Assembly (NCBI GenBank): GCA_965203905.1
Contig: CBDBDQ010000005.1
Coordinates: forward strand, 4,416,001-4,480,000
Origin: Spirochaetia bacterium
GTDB lineage: Bacteria; Spirochaetota; Spirochaetia; SZUA-6; Bin103
DNA length: 64,000 nt
Direction of reading: 5' to 3'
Under the pieces are notes generated by a model. It did no database searches, was not told the DNA's origin, and saw nothing but the letters and a program-made list of their open reading frames with translations. Position 1 is the first letter of the stretch. Each line of letters opens with the position of its first letter. The translations under genes and the position numbers were made by a program. Positions 57,109 to 64,000 of this stretch are shown here, piece by piece.

Positions 57109-58035
57109 ATGAAGGCGCTGGTAACCGACGAGTGGGCATTGCGTTACGTGAATGAGCTGAAGGCGGAGTTCGCCGCGGTCGAGTTCGTTCGGGAGGCGTC
57201 GGCGGACGTCGAAGTGGTGATCGGCCGCGTCGACCATGCGGTGCTGGAGCGGACGCCGCAGGTCAAGTGGATCCAGGCCCTCAGCGCGGGAGTGGAGTGG
57301 CTGCGCGAGGTTCCGGCGCTGGCCACCTCCGACATCGTGGTCACCAACGCCCGTGGCGCCCATGCCGCCACCATTGCCGAGCACGCGCTCGGCATGCTCG
57401 TGTTTCTCGCGCGGCACTTCGATGCCCTCTACCGAGCCCAGCAGGAGCGGGTCTGGGTGTCGCCGGCGCCCGCCGGCACCGTGGGGCTTTCCGGGCTGAC
57501 CATGGGCGTGATCGGATTAGGCCACATCGGCCGGGCGATCGCGGTGCGGGCCCACGGGTTCGAGATGAAGGTTATCGCCGTGGACGTCCACGAGCTGCCG
57601 AAGCCGGACTGCGTGGCGGAGTTGCGCCTGCTCGACGGCCTGGACGACCTGCTGCGCCGGGCCGACGTGGTGGCGGTGGCAACGCCCATCACCGACCGGA
57701 CCCGGGGCATGTTGGGAGCGCGGGAGCTGGCGCTGCTGAAGCCGAGCGCCTATCTCCTGGTGATGTCGCGCGGCGGCATCGTGGACGAGCCGACCGTCGC
57801 GCGCATGCTGCGGGAGGGCACGCTGGCCGGGGCGGGGCTGGATGTCACCGCGGTGGAGCCGCTGCCCGCCGACAGCGAGCTGTGGGATGCCCCGAACAGC
57901 ATCATCACGCCGCACAGCTCGCCGGTCTCCGAACAGACCCACGCCTCGGTCACGGCCGTTCTGCGGCGCAATCTGAACCACTACCTGGCGGGGGAGCCGC
58001 TGGAGAACGTGGTCGACACGAAGCTGGGCTACTGA
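57109..58035 (+). CDS. D-2-hydroxyacid dehydrogenase
   Basis: AGGAGA RBS; GLGHIG, MSRGGIVDE, LDVT, ITPH. Confidence 0.9.
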   Translation: MKALVTDEWALRYVNELKAEFAAVEFVREASADVEVVIGRVDHAVLERTPQVKWIQALSAGVEWLREVPALATSDIVVTNARGAHAATIAEHALGMLVFLARHFDALYRAQQERVWVSPAPAGTVGLSGLTMGVIGLGHIGRAIAVRAHGFEMKVIAVDVHELPKPDCVAELRLLDGLDDLLRRADVVAVATPITDRTRGMLGARELALLKPSAYLLVMSRGGIVDEPTVARMLREGTLAGAGLDVTAVEPLPADSELWDAPNSIITPHSSPVSEQTHASVTAVLRRNLNHYLAGEPLENVVDTKLGY

Positions 58036-58071
58036 CGCCGGGCAACGCGGAAACTGACGCCCGGCGCCCCC

Positions 58072-58845
58072 TCACACCGCCGCGATGTAGCCGCCGTCCA
58101 CCAACAGGCTGGAGCCGGTGATCCACTCGCCGTCTTCCGACGCCAGGAACACCACGGCGCGGCCGATGTCGCGCGGCGTGCCGAAGCGGGGCAGGGCGGT
58201 ACGCTGGCGTGCCTCCTCCACCTGCTGCGGGGTCATGTAGTCCTGGATCGCGGTCTCGATGTAGCCGGGGCAGATGGCGTTGCAGGTGATGCCGTGGGCG
58301 CCCAGTTCCCATGCCGTGTCCCGCGCCAGGTTCACCAGGGCCGCCTTGCTGGCGGCATAGGGCGCACCGCCGCCGCCCCCGTACGCGTGCACCGAGGCGA
58401 TGTGGATGATGCGCCCCGCGGCGGAGCGCTTGAGGTGCGGCACGGCCAGCTTGGTGGCCACGAAGGCGGAACGCAGGTTCACCGCCATGATGCGGTCGAA
58501 CTGTTCCAGCGAGAGCTGCTGCGAGTCCGCCAGCGTCGTGATGCCCGCATTGTTGACCACGATGTCCAGGCCTCCGAGCTCGCCCACGGTGCGCTCCACC
58601 AGCGTCTCCATCTGCGCTGCGTCGCCGACGTCGGTGGACACGAACAGCGCGCGCCCTCCCAGCTCGGCGATCGCCGCCGCGGTCGGCGGTCGCGGCTCGG
58701 TCTCGTGGTAGATGCCGATCTTGGGATCCTCACGGATGTCGGCCACCGCCACGGCGGCGCCTTCGCGTGCCAGCTCCAGGGCGATTCCGCGGCCGATGCC
58801 GGAGCTGGCGCCGGTGACAATGGCCACTCGGTTCTGCAGAAGCAT
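58072..58845 (-). CDS. SDR oxidoreductase
   Basis: TGASSGIG, NNAG, YAASK, CPG, VDGG. Confidence 0.9.
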   Translation of the reverse strand: MLLQNRVAIVTGASSGIGRGIALELAREGAAVAVADIREDPKIGIYHETEPRPPTAAAIAELGGRALFVSTDVGDAAQMETLVERTVGELGGLDIVVNNAGITTLADSQQLSLEQFDRIMAVNLRSAFVATKLAVPHLKRSAAGRIIHIASVHAYGGGGGAPYAASKAALVNLARDTAWELGAHGITCNAICPGYIETAIQDYMTPQQVEEARQRTALPRFGTPRDIGRAVVFLASEDGEWITGSSLLVDGGYIAAV

Positions 58846-58861
58846 GCGCGTATTGTACCGG

Positions 58862-60373
58862 TTACAGCCCAGGCACGATTTCCGACTCCTTGAGCACCAC
58901 GTCGTGGGCGCCACCTTCCCGCAGGCTGGTGGCGGAGACCACCGTAAGCCGTGCTTCCCGGTGCAGCGCCGCGATGTCGGTGACCCCGCAGTTGCACATG
59001 GTGCTCTTGATCTTGCCCAGCGTCTGGTTGAGGTTGTCGCGCAGCTCGCCGGCGTAGGGCACGTAGCCGTCCACACCTTCCTCGAAGGCGAGCCCACCCG
59101 CCTGCGGGTGGCCGTTGTAGCGCTGCCAGTTGCGGGCCCTGATGGTGCCCTCGCCCCAGTACTCCTTGACGAAGTTGGTGCCCATGCGGAGACGCGGCGC
59201 GGGACTCTCGTCGAAGCGCGCGAAGTAGCGGCCCATCATCACGCAGTCCGCCCCCATCGCCAGTGCCAGGGTGATGTGGTAGTCGTGGAAGATGCCGCCG
59301 TCGGCGCAGATCGGGACGTACTCGCCGGTCTCCTGCAACAGCCGGTCGCGGGCCGCCGCGACGTCCAGCACCGCGCTGGCTTGGCCGCGGCCCATTCCTT
59401 TCTGCTCCCGCGTGATGCAGATCGAGCCGGGGCCCACGCCCACCTTGACGAAGTCGGCGCCCGCCGCGGCGAGGTAGCGGAATCCCTCGCCGTCCACCAC
59501 GTTGCCGGCGCCGACGCACACGCTGTCCCCGTAGCGTTCCTTCACCCACGCCAGGCAGTCGTGCTGGAACTCGGAATAGCCGTCCGAGGAATCGATGCAC
59601 AGCACGTCGACCCCCGCGTCGATCAGGCTGGGCACGCGCTCGGCGTAGTCGTGGGTGTTGATTCCGGCACCCACCATGAGCCGTTTCTCGTGGTCGATCA
59701 GCTCGTCCGGATTCTCCTTGTGCTCGTCGTAGTCCTTGCGGAACACCAGGTAGCGCAGCCGGTGCTCGTGGTCGATGATCGGCAGGCAGTTGAGGCGGTG
59801 CTCCCAGATCAGGTTGTTGGCCTCGGTCAGGGTGATGCCGTCGCGGCCGTACACGAGCTCCCGGAACGGCGTCATCAGGTCTTCCACCGGCTGCTCCAGG
59901 GCGACGTGGCCGAGGCGGTAGTCGCGGCCGGTGAGGATGCCCAGCAGGCGGCCGTTGGCGCTGCCGCTGTCGGTCACCGCCATGGTGGTGTGTCCGGTGG
60001 TGCGGCTGAGCTCCAGCACGTCACGCAGCGTCGCCCGTGGCGAGACGTTGGTGTCGCTTACCACGAATCCGGCCTTGAACTTCTTCACCCGGCGCACCAT
60101 TTCCGCCTGCTGCGCTATCGGCTGCGAGGTGAAGATGAACGCCAGGCCGCCCGAGCGTGCCAGCGCCACCGCCATCGCGTCGTCGGACACCGACTGCATC
60201 ATCGCCGAGATGAGCGGCACGTTCAGGGTGAGCTGCGCGGCGTCGGGTGGCCGGTGGCGGGTCAGCGGCGCGCGCAGACTGACGTTGGCGGGAATGCACT
60301 CGCGCCGCGTCAGGTTGGGAAGCAGCAGGTACTCGCTGAACGTGCGCGAGATTCCGGGTACTACGGTGGCCAT
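58862..60373 (-). CDS. guaB: IMP dehydrogenase
   Basis: [11 protein letters not shown] pair, [23 protein letters not shown]. Confidence 0.95.
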
Positions 60374-60496
60374 GCGGGTCTCCTCTCGTAGATGGGATGG
60401 GGTAGCGACGCACCACCACGTGGCGCGGTAACGGTCGGACGGATCGGTTGGGGGCGCGAGCGCGTGACGACGCGCCTCGGACGAGGCGGCCGGCAG

Positions 60497-61561
60497 TCAG
60501 CCTGAGACGGTCTGGCCCTGTGGCGCACGCAGCGCGCCGGTGAGCATGCGCTCGGTCGTGTCCCAGCTGATGCACTCGTCGGTAATGGAGATACCGTAGC
60601 GAAGCTCGCCGGGATCGTCGGGGATACTCTGCCGGCCCTCGAACAGGTTGCTCTCCAGCATGGCGCCGACGATCGGGCAGGCGGGGGACTGCGCCCGCTG
60701 TTCCAGCACGCTGTTCCAGGCGGTCTCCTGGTTCTGATGTTTCTTGCCGGAATTGTCGTGGCTGCAATCCACCATCAGCACCGGCGCCAGTCCGGAATGG
60801 TCCAGGCGGTCGACTGCCGCGCGTACGCTGGCCGCGTCGTAGTTGGTGCCGGTGCGGCCGCCGCGCAGGATCACGTGGCCGGTCCGGTTGCCGCGGGTGC
60901 TCACGACGCCGATGCGACCGTCCTGGTCGAGGCCCAGGAAGCGGTGTGGATCACGCGCCGAGACGATGGCGTCGATGGCCACCTGCAGGTTGCCGTCGGT
61001 GGAGTTCTTGAAGCCCACCGGCATCGACAGCCCGCTGGCCATCTCGCGATGGGTCTGCGACTCCGTGGTGCGCGCCCCGACCGCGGCCCATGCCACCAGG
61101 TCCGCGGTGTACTGGGGCACGATGGGGTCGAGCACCTCGGTGGCGGTGGGCAGCCCCAGCTCGTTGATCGCCAGCAGGATACGGCGGGCCATGCGCAACC
61201 CTTCGGGAATGTCAGAGGAGTAGTCGAGATGGGGGTCGATGATCATCCCCCGCCAGCCCACCGTGGTGCGCGGCTTTTCGAAGTACACGCGCATGATCAC
61301 GACGATCTCGTGCTGCACGCGGGTGGCCAGCTCGGCCAGGCGGCCGGCGTACTCCAGCGCCGCCCGCTCGTCGTGGATGGAGCAGGGACCGACGATCACC
61401 AGCAGGCGCGGGTCGCGCCGTGAGAGAATCTTCACCACCGTCTCCCGCGCCCGCACCACGGTCTCGTTGGCCGCCGGCCGCATTGGCAGTTCCTGCTTCA
61501 GCGCCCGCGGCGAGATGAGGGGGTCGATGGCGTGAACGTTGAGATCGAAAGTACGCTGCAT
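60497..61561 (-). CDS. aroF: Class I DAHP synthase (AroF/G/H type)
   Basis: GPCSIHD, RVYFEKPRTTVGW, GARTTESQTHRE, DCSHDNS, SITDEC. Confidence 0.93.
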   Translation of the reverse strand: MQRTFDLNVHAIDPLISPRALKQELPMRPAANETVVRARETVVKILSRRDPRLLVIVGPCSIHDERAALEYAGRLAELATRVQHEIVVIMRVYFEKPRTTVGWRGMIIDPHLDYSSDIPEGLRMARRILLAINELGLPTATEVLDPIVPQYTADLVAWAAVGARTTESQTHREMASGLSMPVGFKNSTDGNLQVAIDAIVSARDPHRFLGLDQDGRIGVVSTRGNRTGHVILRGGRTGTNYDAASVRAAVDRLDHSGLAPVLMVDCSHDNSGKKHQNQETAWNSVLEQRAQSPACPIVGAMLESNLFEGRQSIPDDPGELRYGISITDECISWDTTERMLTGALRAPQGQTVSG

Positions 61562-61834
61562 CCCTGGAGTAAAACGGCGGCCCGGCGGTGGCGCCGGCTA
61601 CGGTAGTCTACGGCACGCGGCAGCTCCGCATCAACCTGCGAATCCGGCGAATCCGCGGGCGCCAGACTCGGAGCGAGGCTCCTTGACGCCTCCTGACGCG
61701 CAACGGCGCGCCTTCCGAGGGCGCCGGGGAGCACCACCGTGCCCTTGCGCGTCGCCTCGGCGCAGCGGTCGAGAGCTCCTGTTGCAGCCGGGCGGCGAAC
61801 GCCGGCCTGGTCTCGCGGTTTCTCCTGAGTCGGT

Positions 61835-62044
61835 TCAGAGAGAGTGAGAGCGTGCCGGTAGCCGAACCGGGTGGCTCTCAGTCAGAGTGCCGGCACCACT
61901 GCGTCGGGCCAGGTAGGTCGAATCCGTCTCCGCCGTGACCTGGTAGGCAGCGGCGGACCGGTTCCCCTTTCGCTGAATCCGCTCGAACGACCAGACTACC
62001 GTAATGCCGGCGACCGCCAGCAACACTATCGCGCTCATCATCAT
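61835..62044 (-). CDS. Small protein with N-terminal TM helix
   Basis: GGAGG RBS before ATG 62044; hydrophobic N-terminus. Confidence 0.45.
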   Translation of the reverse strand: MMMSAIVLLAVAGITVVWSFERIQRKGNRSAAAYQVTAETDSTYLARRSGAGTLTESHPVRLPARSHSL

Positions 62045-62371
62045 CTGTGGTGCCTCCATTCGGGCGCGGTGCCATCACCACAAGAGGCTCACGACGGCAC
62101 TGATGCCCACGCCCATGAAAGCGAGCCCCCGATGGGCGATGTTCAGCCACCCCCCGCGGCTCGCAGCGGGTCGCCTGTCACCGCTCCCCACTTACGACCG
62201 TTTTCGGCGGATGCCCGGGTCTACTTGACTTGGGGCCCGAGGCCTGAGATTCGTGGAACCGTCAGATTCGATCGCAACTTCGTGAACTGCCCGAACCGAA
62301 TCGCGAATCTGCGTGCCGCACGTGAAGCCATCTGTACTGACGAAATGAACGGGGACCCTCCACCGGCAGCG

Positions 62372-62406
62372 GCTTCAATGAGGCCGCCGGAATTCATCGG
62401 CGAAAC
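62372..62406 (-). CRISPR. Detached degenerate terminal repeat
   Basis: GCTTCAATGAGGCCGCCGGAATTCATCGGCGAAAC: one substitution and one deletion versus the consensus. Confidence 0.88.
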
Positions 62407-62538
62407 CTCCTCCTGGCATAGTCGCGAGCCATCGGCAAGATGTTAGAGCGCTCGTTCTTCAGCACCGCTCCGAGCGCCATCCTATCGTCCCAGGTTATTC
62501 CTCTCATGCTCCTCGGGCGGCTCCTCCGCCCTCCTGTC

Positions 62539-62835
62539 CTACTGCCGCGGTGGCTGACTACGTCTTCGTGTTGACTCCCTACGCGCTGCCGTCCGCTCAC
62601 GCTTGCGCTGCTCCTTCGAAGACTCATCGCCCTCAGCAGGCAGCATCCCAAGCTCCACCAACTCGGTCCTGTCACCATTGGCATAGAATATAGCCCACGC
62701 CCTCTCAAGGCGTAAGGCTCTCTCAATCTGATCCGGCTCCGTAGGGTAGATGATCTCACCCTGCGGATTCCGCGCGATCAGAACTCCAATCGGATCTGTG
62801 AACCGACCTACCGCACTCTCATCAGTGTCTGACAC
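62539..62835 (-). CDS. 98-aa hypothetical protein between two CRISPR repeats
   Basis: AGGAGGA 5 nt before GTG at 62835; MSDTDESAVGRFTDPIG...basic C-terminal tail. Confidence 0.6.
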   Translation of the reverse strand: MSDTDESAVGRFTDPIGVLIARNPQGEIIYPTEPDQIERALRLERAWAIFYANGDRTELVELGMLPAEGDESSKEQRKRERTAARRESTRRRSQPPRQ

Positions 62836-62890
62836 AAATGTCCTCCTATGCCAGTGGAATCGCCCGCCGGTCAACGGGTCTGATCCACCC

Positions 62891-64000
62891 GCGTCAATGA
62901 GGCCGCCGGAATTCACCGGCGGAAACACGCGATTCCGAACAGCGTACCGGACGTGATGGGACCGGGCTTGCTTCAATGAGGCCGCCGGAATTCACCGGCG
63001 GAAACGCGCCCTGCCTGACGCCATCGACCCCGCCTGGCGACTGCTGCTTCAATGAGGCCGCCGGAATTCACCGGCGGAAACCTCCCATGCCAACAGGACA
63101 TCGCGCCCGGTAGCAGCCCGGCTTCAATGAGGCCGCCGGAATTCACCGGCGGAAACGCGAGCAGCACCTACCGGAAGGAGCACAAGCTGCTGGCGCTTCA
63201 ATGAGGCCGCCGGAATTCACCGGCGGAAACATGCAGGCACAGGCCGAACTGCAGGAGCAGGGCTTGTGGGCTTCAATGAGGCCGCCGGAATTCACCGGCG
63301 GAAACGCCATGGGAAATTGGGTCTCATCCAGCTGCCGTGACTCGCTTCAATGAGGCCGCCGGAATTCACCGGCGGAAACCACCCGCGCCGCCACCCCGGC
63401 GAACGTGCCGGGGCTGAGCTTCAATGAGGCCGCCGGAATTCACCGGCGGAAACGCGCAGGTACCAGAGCTGCTGGCACCCGACCCAATCAGGCTTCAATG
63501 AGGCCGCCGGAATTCACCGGCGGAAACACCATCATCAAGCGCGTGACCCTCAGCGAGTCGCTCATGCTTCAATGAGGCCGCCGGAATTCACCGGCGGAAA
63601 CGCGGATGGCGTGCTGGCAAGCGCAGCGCTCCAGCCCGAGCTTCAATGAGGCCGCCGGAATTCACCGGCGGAAACCGAGCACGAACTCGCGGATCTCGGC
63701 ATCGGTCCAGGCGACGCTTCAATGAGGCCGCCGGAATTCACCGGCGGAAACCGGCAGGGCCGTTCGTCTGCGCACCAGTGCCATAGACTTCGCTTCAATG
63801 AGGCCGCCGGAATTCACCGGCGGAAACTCCATTGCTCCGTCGCGTTCTGTTCTCAGATTTTGGTGCTTCAATGAGGCCGCCGGAATTCACCGGCGGAAAC
63901 CGGCAGGGCCGTTCGTCTGCGCACCAGTGCCATAGACTTCGCTTCAATGAGGCCGCCGGAATTCACCGGCGGAAACGCGCGTGCCACCACGCCCAGCGGC
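62891..64000 (-). CRISPR. CRISPR array, probably type I-G (I-U); continues beyond the window
   Basis: 15 repeats of 36 bp GCTTCAATGAGGCCGCCGGAATTCACCGGCGGAAAC (starts 62891, 62970, 63046 ... 63941; first has one mismatch), 14 complete spacers of 37-43 nt; minus strand reads GTTTCCGCCGGTGAATTCCGGCGGCCTCATTGAAGC with a CCGCCGG hairpin and ATTGAAGC end. Confidence 0.97.

Follow-up and report, generated by a model that had tools for sequence, protein, structure and literature searches.

A 484-bp segment carrying one complete small gene (ORF1) occupies the last spacer position in a type I-G CRISPR array of this spirochaete. In our view the segment is most likely there as a harmless passenger, comparable to the IS elements in related arrays, and we put the probability that it is a passenger insertion in the oldest spacer slot, possibly read through, at roughly 60%. 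The original prediction had proposed a gene whose expression is coupled to crRNA processing, with neutral insertion as the alternative; the alternative is the better supported of the two, given the foreign composition of the segment and its absence from related arrays.

In the sequence of events that we propose, a horizontally acquired DNA fragment with one complete, promoterless small gene would have inserted into, or replaced, the oldest I-G spacer, which adjoins the degenerate terminal repeat on one side and the remaining array on the other, by a route other than normal Cas1-Cas2 spacer acquisition. Insertion at the trailer end would be cost-free to the cell since the array makes least use of its terminal unit, whose last repeat was already defective, and the segment would therefore persist as a passenger, just as IS elements have done in sister-species arrays.

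The array and its oversized terminal spacer

The CRISPR system adjoining the segment is type I-G, as had been predicted: the adjacent cas genes encode Cas3g, Cas8g/Csx17, Csb1/Cas7g, Csb2, Cas4g/Cas1g, and Cas2 (NCBIfam and Pfam, above curated cut-offs). The array comprises 88 repeats (85 exact), all within G000:C5:4478372-4485338 and none elsewhere in the genome. It continues past the window—the whole 64,000-nt stretch of DNA that was analyzed—to its far end, beyond which a leader of ~200 bp, cas2, cas4/cas1, and other I-G genes follow on the minus strand. The features at the trailer end, in window coordinates, are:

62372-62406, minus strand: terminal (trailer-most) degenerate repeat, 35 nt, with one substitution and a 1-nt deletion; stem weakened
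62407-62890, minus strand: non-spacer segment (“giant spacer”), 484 bp, of foreign composition and single-copy
62394-62507, minus strand: 37-aa ORF, ending within the terminal repeat, without support as a gene
62413-62421, no strand: left arm of an inverted repeat (CTGGCATAG), 9 bp, perfect, 6 nt from the terminal repeat
62515-62531, minus strand: GC hairpin (GGGCGG-loop-CCGCCC), 8 nt past the ORF1 stop, without a U-run and not called by the terminator scan
62539-62835, minus strand: ORF1, a GTG-initiated frame of 98 codons and a stop, whose product has an acidic core (~69 aa, pI 4.25) and a basic tail of 29 aa
62841-62847, minus strand: Shine-Dalgarno sequence AGGAGGA, 5 nt ahead of the ORF1 GTG
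62846-62854, no strand: right arm of the inverted repeat (CTATGCCAG), 9 bp, perfect, 36 nt from the penultimate repeat
62891-62926, minus strand: penultimate repeat, 36 nt, hairpin intact, a single T>G substitution altering the 8-nt handle (AUUGACGC)
62927-64000, minus strand: the array's continuation up to the window's end, 14 canonical repeats

The two degenerate trailer-most repeats, 484 bp apart, are thus present as predicted; both match the array consensus and sit in line with the array, in which all other spacers are 32–47 nt long (mostly 38–39). The substitution in the terminal repeat is C>T (CAC>CAT on the plus strand), and the mutations in the two repeats differ, none being common to both. 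The distance from the segment to the leader is 6.9 kb, or 86 units, and no tRNA or tmRNA gene occurs in positions 58000-64000.

Transcription of the array on the minus strand is supported by the position of the leader and cas genes, the repeat fold, the Csb2 geometry, and the strand of the Rfam matches in the array, which are weak and to CRISPR-DR16 only. Specifically, the minus-strand repeat RNA folds into a stem of 7 bp, after which come CCUC and AUUGAAGC; this is the geometry reported for Csb2 substrates (a 7-bp stem, cleavage 4 nt 3′ of it, and an 8-nt handle) and so supports transcription in this direction.

The structure itself withstood comparison with independent contigs, misassembly having been named as a concern at the outset. 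Among short-read contigs of public runs, one from X1 (maybe the genome's source sample) matches 62100-62926 with 0 differences, running from the flank through the terminal repeat and the segment into the penultimate repeat. Another, from a second sample (X2), matches the flank-to-segment junction (62193-62624) equally without a difference.

The segment has a GC content of 0.595 vs. 0.663 for the genome, and the GC3 of ORF1 is 0.61 vs. 0.93 in one neighboring host gene. It is found only at its own locus, the remaining matches in the genome being 16–47 nt long at E ≥ 0.04. With its flank (repeat excluded), it has no DNA match in any of the 10 same-genus genomes. Arrays built on this repeat are present in five of these genomes, and the segment is in none of the five arrays. 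Composition, copy number, and absence from same-genus genomes together make the segment look recent and foreign.

DNA insertions into same-repeat arrays of the genus recur. IS elements with a transposase fill oversized spacers in two of the five arrays, one of them terminal: a 1441-bp terminal “spacer” in G407, in which a multi-copy IS encoding a Mutator-family transposase takes up positions 30–1424, and a 1414-bp internal “spacer” in G409 with a DUF4372+DDE_Tnp_1 transposase. The ordinary state is seen in G406, in which a degenerate terminal repeat stands beside a normal spacer. No spacer is common to two arrays in the 15 pairs of six arrays. The gene neighboring our array on its trailer side, which we take by eye, without a family search, to encode a DAHP synthase, was found in G409 only, where 7.5 kb of other genes precede the first repeat.

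In these IS-interrupted arrays, as here, foreign DNA stands between two repeats in place of a spacer, the array is otherwise intact, and the trailer end appears tolerant; an IS6110 copy likewise occurs in the DR locus of Mycobacterium tuberculosis. The present segment differs in being single-copy and in its cargo of one small non-transposase gene, with no transposase (Pfam, NCBIfam, PHROG) and no target-site duplication (by sequence reading). This lack of a transposase, second copy, or target-site duplication counts against the passenger reading. Nor does the insert resemble an acquired spacer: at 484 bp, it falls outside the 32–47-nt range, and there is no repeat duplication with common mutations. 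The different, unshared mutations of the flanking repeats argue against repeat duplication by Cas1-Cas2 integration.

ORF1 and its relatives

The predicted 98-aa ORF with a strong AGGAGGA ribosome-binding site on the array strand was confirmed (62835-62539, minus) and has homologs. Two relatives (E = 2e-25 and 8e-25; 74 and 73% identity) begin MSDIDENAVGRF, and ORF1 begins MSDTDESAVGRF; ORF1 and its relatives of up to 74% identity start at the same residue. Because close relatives align from the same start residue, ORF1 is a real gene, more than a chance reading frame. A 151-nt contig from the metagenome of another study (X3) is ~97% identical to part of the segment, with one synonymous change in ORF1 and another to a residue present in the closest homologs, so that the gene has outlasted some divergence. 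(X2 and X3 cover parts of the segment, and stretches without cover were left out of the interpretation.) Such persistence is a point against a mere passenger, as is an intact ORF1 on the transcribed strand of the array with a near-ideal ribosome-binding site. The 37-aa ORF also raised as a possibility exists and ends in the last repeat as described; as a gene, it finds no family match, and a 45-aa reading of the same frame has no longer relative.

An exhaustive protein search returned 16 cluster representatives at E ≤ 1e-3, with the family core consensus (alignment A1) RF.DP...G.I..P....RAL..E.AW......GD...L.ELG..P. The family to which the ORF1 product belongs is rare and unnamed, and its proteins are small and acidic, sharing a core of ~60 aa. 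The close relatives P0002, P0003, and P0019 are encoded on contigs of 6.4–54.7 kb, and P0005, P0017, and P0025 on contigs of 684 kb, 1.37 Mb, and 6.3 Mb, respectively. ORF1 stands alone (unfused), and its basic 29-aa tail is unique within the alignment. One further candidate, the 486-aa protein P0006, matched via a short repeated motif only—perhaps akin to RPEL repeats—and was left out of A1.

AF2 models ORF1 as a beta-hairpin with two helices, one long and one short (pLDDT 69.6 on average; core 85–88). No credible family was found in Pfam, NCBIfam, PHROGs, or the PADLOC defense-system models, and no credible structural match in the PDB (best sequence-profile E = 0.84; best Foldseek E = 2.1); the ESM Atlas gave no usable match. 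The protein is acidic and soluble-looking. Our guess is that the domain may be a partner-binding or regulatory, possibly inhibitory, module.

Relatives of ORF1 are scarce. Protein homologs are absent from the 10 same-genus genomes and from 400 sampled genomes each of the class and the phylum, and occur in two of 91 other genomes of the order (G418 and G420). In G418, from a sister genus, the ORF1-family domain is a C-terminal fusion to an endonuclease/exonuclease/phosphatase (EEP, Exo_endo_phos) protein; our genome has no EEP homolog and the segment no partner gene. Other fused or longer forms were not found when the A1 profile was run against proteins of 239–2000 aa, which is weak evidence. 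No locus encoding ORF1 relatives emerged from scans of genome, viral, and metagenome contigs, and tblastn with the protein matched none of 50,697 phage or 72,556 plasmid records. For an anti-CRISPR, antitoxin, or immunity protein, one would look for a mobile-element setting and a partner gene (aca, a toxin, or a nuclease); of such signs, ORF1 shows small size, acidity, and the EEP fusion in G418, but neither a partner gene in the segment nor a phage or plasmid match.

The original prediction also asked whether homologs are repeat-flanked, and took homologs confined to non-CRISPR contexts, together with absence of the segment from related arrays, as grounds for giving up a CRISPR-linked function. 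As far as testable, this is what we found: neither of the two contexts seen is a CRISPR locus, and the segment is in 0/5 related arrays. A link between the ORF1 protein and CRISPR function is not indicated. The 14 other A1 relatives are metagenome-derived and lie outside this comparison of contexts; a CRISPR-repeat association is possible among them, which bears against the passenger reading.

Possible processing of the segment and alternative origins

The geometry of the flanking repeats would let Csb2 excise a translatable RNA. The penultimate repeat has a predicted hairpin energy of −14.8 kcal/mol with a full 7-bp stem, the same as canonical repeats. As this upstream hairpin is full and Csb2 cuts 4 nt 3′ of the stem, the predicted RNA runs from 62898 to 62380, i.e., 519 nt, in agreement with the ~520 nt originally estimated. 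Processing at both repeats, part of the same proposal, is favored by the predicted fold at the upstream repeat only: the terminal hairpin is weakened (−9.2 kcal/mol, z −0.6, vs. −14.8 for canonical repeats). No sigma-70-like promoter site was found in 61500-63200, and the one terminator-like site in that interval lies inside ORF1 and is at chance level. As no promoter of its own was found, any ORF1 expression must stem from read-through. With ORF1 on the transcribed strand behind a strong ribosome-binding site, read-through pre-crRNA could be processed and translated, Csb2 cutting it to the ~519-nt RNA before translation.

A rival account is a co-opted gene: Csb2 cleavage at the flanking repeats would release a discrete mRNA, and the protein, made only upon transcription and processing of the array, would regulate or inhibit the I-G system or act in it as an addiction-type factor. 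The shared strand, strong ribosome-binding site, and intact reading frame fit this account, as do the full upstream hairpin with its Csb2 cleavage geometry, expression by read-through only, the occurrence of the segment in two samples and of a variant in another study, and, perhaps, a family that is small and acidic, as many inhibitor proteins are. However, orientation on the same strand has even odds by chance, the terminal hairpin is weakened, and the segment is remote from the leader (6.9 kb, 86 units). It is also foreign in composition and missing from all five related arrays and all 10 congeners, while the homolog contexts seen are non-CRISPR and ORF1 matches no PADLOC defense-system model. 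We therefore consider co-option unlikely, and a selected, processing-coupled gene of any kind improbable. More specifically, the array may serve as an expression platform, with Csb2 cutting a 519-nt mRNA that bears the crRNA 5′ handle and ORF1 protein being made in step with array transcription and processing, to act on the I-G machinery or an invader or to make array loss costly; this version we likewise hold to be unlikely.

CreTA had been named as a known CRISPR-linked toxin module, and no CreTA-like targeting was seen. The 36 nt after the penultimate handle gave chance-level matches of 12–16 nt, with none in the cas locus, seed-anchored or otherwise, among the best 30 listed (blastn-short against the genome; queries of 36 nt at the penultimate and 40 nt at the terminal repeat, all 30 listed matches being from the 36-nt query).

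The perfect 9-bp inverted repeat near both ends of the segment is a further point against the passenger reading, and could mean either a mobile cassette or an RNA stem. As a cassette, the segment would be a small non-autonomous element of 442 bp (62413-62854) with 9-bp terminal inverted repeats and ORF1 as cargo, moved into a 42-nt terminal spacer by transposition or recombination: the leftover flanks (6 + 36 = 42 nt) fall inside the 32–47-nt spacer range, and a 9-bp pair within 50 nt of both ends is rare in shuffles (88/20000), though the test was chosen post hoc, after the inverted repeat was seen. Set against this are the single copy in the genome, the absent target-site duplication, and the lack of any related locus in viral, genome, or metagenome scans or of a match in phage or plasmid collections. 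We judge such a cassette to have a small chance of being right.

Recombination with a repeat-bearing phage or plasmid has poorer prospects still. Here a solitary repeat or mini-array next to a gene would have recombined through repeat homology, leaving the gene between hybrid repeats; mobile elements bearing isolated repeats or mini-arrays are described in 10.1101/2023.03.03.530964, as is the tendency of repeats to recombine, and our two flanking repeats are indeed mutated differently. Yet the repeat core is in 0 viral contigs, viral contig scans hold no relative, and the phage and plasmid records show no tblastn match to ORF1, making this origin very unlikely. An assembly artefact or decayed array units—prompted by an assembly of five contigs with 7.9% contamination and by 520 bp equaling seven repeat-spacer periods arithmetically—is largely refuted by the X1 and X2 contigs, by the real homologs of ORF1, and by the lack of degenerate repeats inside the segment (at ≤8 mismatches in 30).

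Relation to known systems and implications

Beyond IS-interrupted arrays, three known systems share some features with this locus. CreTA and crRNA-like mini-arrays also place degenerate repeats around non-canonical content, with cargo tied, as an idea, to Cascade and crRNA processing; in 10.1101/2023.03.03.530964, the mini-array inserts are of spacer size and in part complementary to a promoter, and the RNA toxin CreT is located between cas genes, in contrast to a 484-bp protein-coding segment at the trailer of an array. Type I toxin-antitoxin modules of Clostridium difficile are likewise small genes physically linked to arrays; they reportedly lie beside the arrays, and their toxins are small and hydrophobic and paired with antisense RNAs (PMC5961336), whereas ORF1 lies between repeats and is acidic and soluble-looking. 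Phrase searches of main texts returned no report of a non-transposase protein gene between two array repeats, which does not imply that there is none.

Integron gene cassettes are also promoterless single-ORF units with their own ribosome-binding site, expressible only by upstream read-through. No attC site (by eye only) or integrase was recognized in the segment, and we do not class it as a member.

If only a passenger, the segment would be a clean example of an array's trailer end as a safe landing site for non-IS foreign DNA, and it warns that oversized “spacers” may hide genes from array-calling software. It also brings to light a rare new protein family, whose members are small and acidic and whose ~60-aa core is in one case fused C-terminally to an EEP-family enzyme. 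Were the RNA truly excised by Csb2 and translated, it would be a natural mRNA matured by a CRISPR endoribonuclease, which would be of interest to CRISPR biology and to synthetic multiplexed expression.

The type I-G array and its terminal interval

The array at the right end of the window carries a 36-nt repeat (+ strand, GCTTCAATGAGGCCGCCGGAATTCACCGGCGGAAAC), and a whole-genome search of the host genome (G000) placed 88 repeats in a single array (G000:C5:4478372-4485338, from window position 62372 onward), 85 of them without a mismatch, two with a single mismatch and the first one degenerate.

Features of the array and its surroundings
62372-62406: terminal repeat, one substitution and a 1-nt deletion
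62407-62890: 484-bp segment
62835-62539, minus strand: ORF1, 98 aa
62891-62926: penultimate repeat, one substitution, within the handle
Directly beyond the far array end: leader, ~200 bp
Past the leader, minus strand: cas2, then a cas4/cas1 fusion, above curated type I-G cut-offs
After cas4/cas1, minus strand: a pair of non-cas genes (AAA-ATPase_like, LCM methyltransferase)
After these two genes, minus strand: Csb2, Csb1/Cas7g, Cas8g1/Csx17 and Cas3g, in that order, above curated type I-G cut-offs

As the leader and the I-G cas genes lie on the minus strand beyond the far end, the array is transcribed from the minus strand and 62372 is its trailer end; weak matches to Rfam CRISPR-DR16 also fall on that strand. 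The minus-strand repeat forms a 7-bp stem, after which come CCUC and AUUGAAGC, in agreement with the reported geometry of Csb2 substrates—36-nt repeats with a 7-bp stem, cleaved 4 nt beyond its 3' side to leave an 8-nt 5' handle, with Csb2 remaining bound to the 3' hairpin (10.1101/2022.08.08.503147). Within the I-G operon, the interval between csb2 and cas4/cas1 (locus L009, 2951-5273, right of the window) holds the predicted AAA-ATPase (PF09820) and the LCM-type methyltransferase (PF04072). Elsewhere in the array, an exact 112-nt duplicate (63716-63827 and 63865-63976) represents doubled repeat-spacer units, and across the whole array 10 spacer pairs have an 18-mer in common; this suggests internal recombination or duplication.

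The original prediction of an oversized spacer between two degenerate repeats holds: the terminal and penultimate repeats are 484 bp apart, versus 32–47 nt for the other spacers. Contigs from public runs match the assembled structure. Specifically, a single contig of run X1 spans 62100-62926 with zero differences (past 62926 it jumps to the leader, as expected because identical repeats collapse in assembly), and another sample from that study yielded a contig that spans 62193-62624, also with zero differences. X1 may be the sample behind the G000 genome, and hence its support is not fully independent.

ORF1 and a new small-protein family

ORF1 was recovered as predicted (GTG start, AGGAGGA 5 nt upstream) and is, on sequence evidence, a real gene. 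A metagenome search, proposed at the outset, matched two 84-aa proteins (E 2e-25 and 8e-25; 74% and 73% identity), both starting at the residue equivalent to the ORF1 start. When 1.84 billion cluster representatives were searched exhaustively, 16 proteins matched at E<=1e-3. Our family alignment (17 rows) took in 14 of these 16, the window protein and P0002 from an earlier search, with P0003 found by both searches; it excluded P0006 (a repeat protein of 486 aa whose match is confined to a short motif) and P0025 (a cluster member of 160 aa that was used at a later step). The aligned family has a core of ~60 aa in which G, W, D, L and G are invariant, and its members are acidic (pI 4–6), unnamed, 60–136 aa long and rare (clusters of 1–5 sequences, on contigs of 1.3 kb to 6.3 Mb). 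Among the aligned rows, a basic 29-aa tail is unique to the window member. Of two longer relatives (P0004, 136 aa; P0025, 160 aa), one has a tandem double domain and another an unrelated ~90-aa N-terminal extension. The AF2 model of ORF1 predicts a beta-hairpin and two helices, the first of 20 residues and the second short (core pLDDT 85–88, whole-model mean 69.6). The protein matches none of the curated families, defence models, solved structures and Atlas clusters; this is a new small-protein family.

The second, 37-aa ORF that had been proposed is present in the sequence, but its status as a gene is unsupported, with no family match and, for a 45-aa read of its frame, no longer relative. 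In the terminal repeat, the C>T change also creates an ATG 8 nt after GGAGGAGG, overlapping the 37-aa ORF stop (ATGA) and opening a 58-aa frame into the trailer (62221-62397, minus strand); we take this frame as chance because the contigs matching the flank in X3, a metagenome run from another study, diverge at 62316, inside it.

Whether homologs are repeat-flanked had been set as a test, and the two contexts examined, both from genomes of the same order, are non-CRISPR loci. In G418 (L029, 6091-6987), the domain makes up the last 60 residues of a protein of 298 aa that has an Exo_endo_phos domain at residues 6-226; the gene has no repeat array nearby and sits between genes that were read by eye as acyl-CoA synthetase/acyltransferase and methyltransferase (Ogt-like). 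In G420 (L030, 5697-7120), a rearranged fragment of the domain is attached to an N-terminal part that resembles EEP, and an intact EEP gene lies next to it. The EEP enzyme is without a homolog in G000. As this small acidic domain is found on its own as well as attached to an enzyme of the nuclease/phosphatase fold, it may be a binding or regulatory module.

Origin of the segment

On composition and distribution, we take the segment to be foreign and lineage-specific. Its GC is 0.595 versus 0.663 for the genome, GC3 is 0.61 in ORF1 versus 0.93 in one neighbouring host gene, and G000 holds one copy. Retention in related arrays had been set as a test; the segment had no match in any of the 10 same-genus genomes, including the five with arrays of the G000 repeat or a 3-mismatch variant (G401, G404, G406, G407, G409). 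DNA matches in these 10 were to the repeat only, and none encodes an ORF1 homolog. The family profile matched 2/91 other genomes of the order (G418 and G420), 0/400 sampled class genomes and 0/400 sampled phylum genomes. A phage search had also been proposed; by tblastn, the ORF1 protein matched nothing in phage or plasmid collections. The 810-bp trailer flank (61563-62371), between a gene read by eye as a DAHP synthase and the terminal repeat, contains no convincing gene, is likewise unmatched in the 10 genomes and may itself be acquired DNA. In X3, a 151-nt contig ~97% identical to 62727-62878 carries one synonymous change, one change to a residue seen in the closest homologs and a 1-nt deletion between RBS and start codon—a variant that hints at persistence of the segment.

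Spacer slots are interrupted in 2/5 related arrays, one of them (G407) in the same slot as in the window. There, a terminal repeat, also degenerate, lies 1441 bp from its array; interval positions 30-1424 belong to a multi-copy IS whose transposase is of the Mutator family, and the remaining 46 nt amount to one spacer plus a duplication. In G409 (L051, 1623-3036), an internal 1414-bp "spacer" contains an IS whose transposase is DUF4372+DDE_Tnp_1. The uninterrupted form is seen in G406, with a normal-sized spacer beside a degenerate terminal repeat. No two of the six arrays have a spacer in common (0/15 pairs), and the ancestral terminal spacer is therefore beyond reconstruction. Trailer-side synteny with the window was found for G409 only, with 7.5 kb of other genes there. 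In G407 (L031, 8321-9797), the terminal repeat keeps an 8-bp stem via compensatory changes, has the CAC>CAT change in common with that of the window and is followed by a RAMP-family gene.

As to the route of entry, a mobile cassette is a possibility: the arms of a perfect 9-bp inverted repeat lie 6 nt from one flanking repeat and 36 nt from the other, only 88/20000 shuffles produced comparable arms no more than 50 nt from each end (a test chosen post hoc), and the 42 nt outside it are spacer-sized. However, a target-site duplication and a second copy in G000 are both missing, and we hold it at that strength for this reason. Normal spacer acquisition is unlikely, given the >10x spacer size, the trailer position and flanking repeats without any common mutation. 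Recombination with a phage-borne repeat has no support, the repeat core occurring in no viral contig searched.

Possible processing-coupled expression and the overall reading

The original prediction also tied ORF1 expression to crRNA maturation. Csb2 cuts at the penultimate and terminal repeats would free an RNA with ends at 62898 and 62380, comprising an 8-nt handle, a 55-nt leader, the RBS and ORF1; at 519 nt the geometry fits the ~520 nt foreseen, and the penultimate hairpin is intact. But the terminal hairpin is weak (-9.2 versus -14.8 kcal/mol), and the distance of the unit from the leader (6.9 kb) and the failure to find a promoter-like site near the segment also count against this mechanism. 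Unlike the CreTA and crRNA-like mini-arrays (10.1101/2023.03.03.530964), the segment yielded no comparable guide role: for sequence adjacent to the penultimate-repeat handle, the best 30 genome matches listed are at chance level, and none of them falls in the cas locus. A processing-coupled function of ORF1 under selection seems improbable to us.

We favour, at a probability of about 0.6, a recent passenger insertion into the array slot where it costs least, one that may be read through and translated. The segment would then represent a variant of the known interrupted-array phenomenon, plus a new small-protein family.
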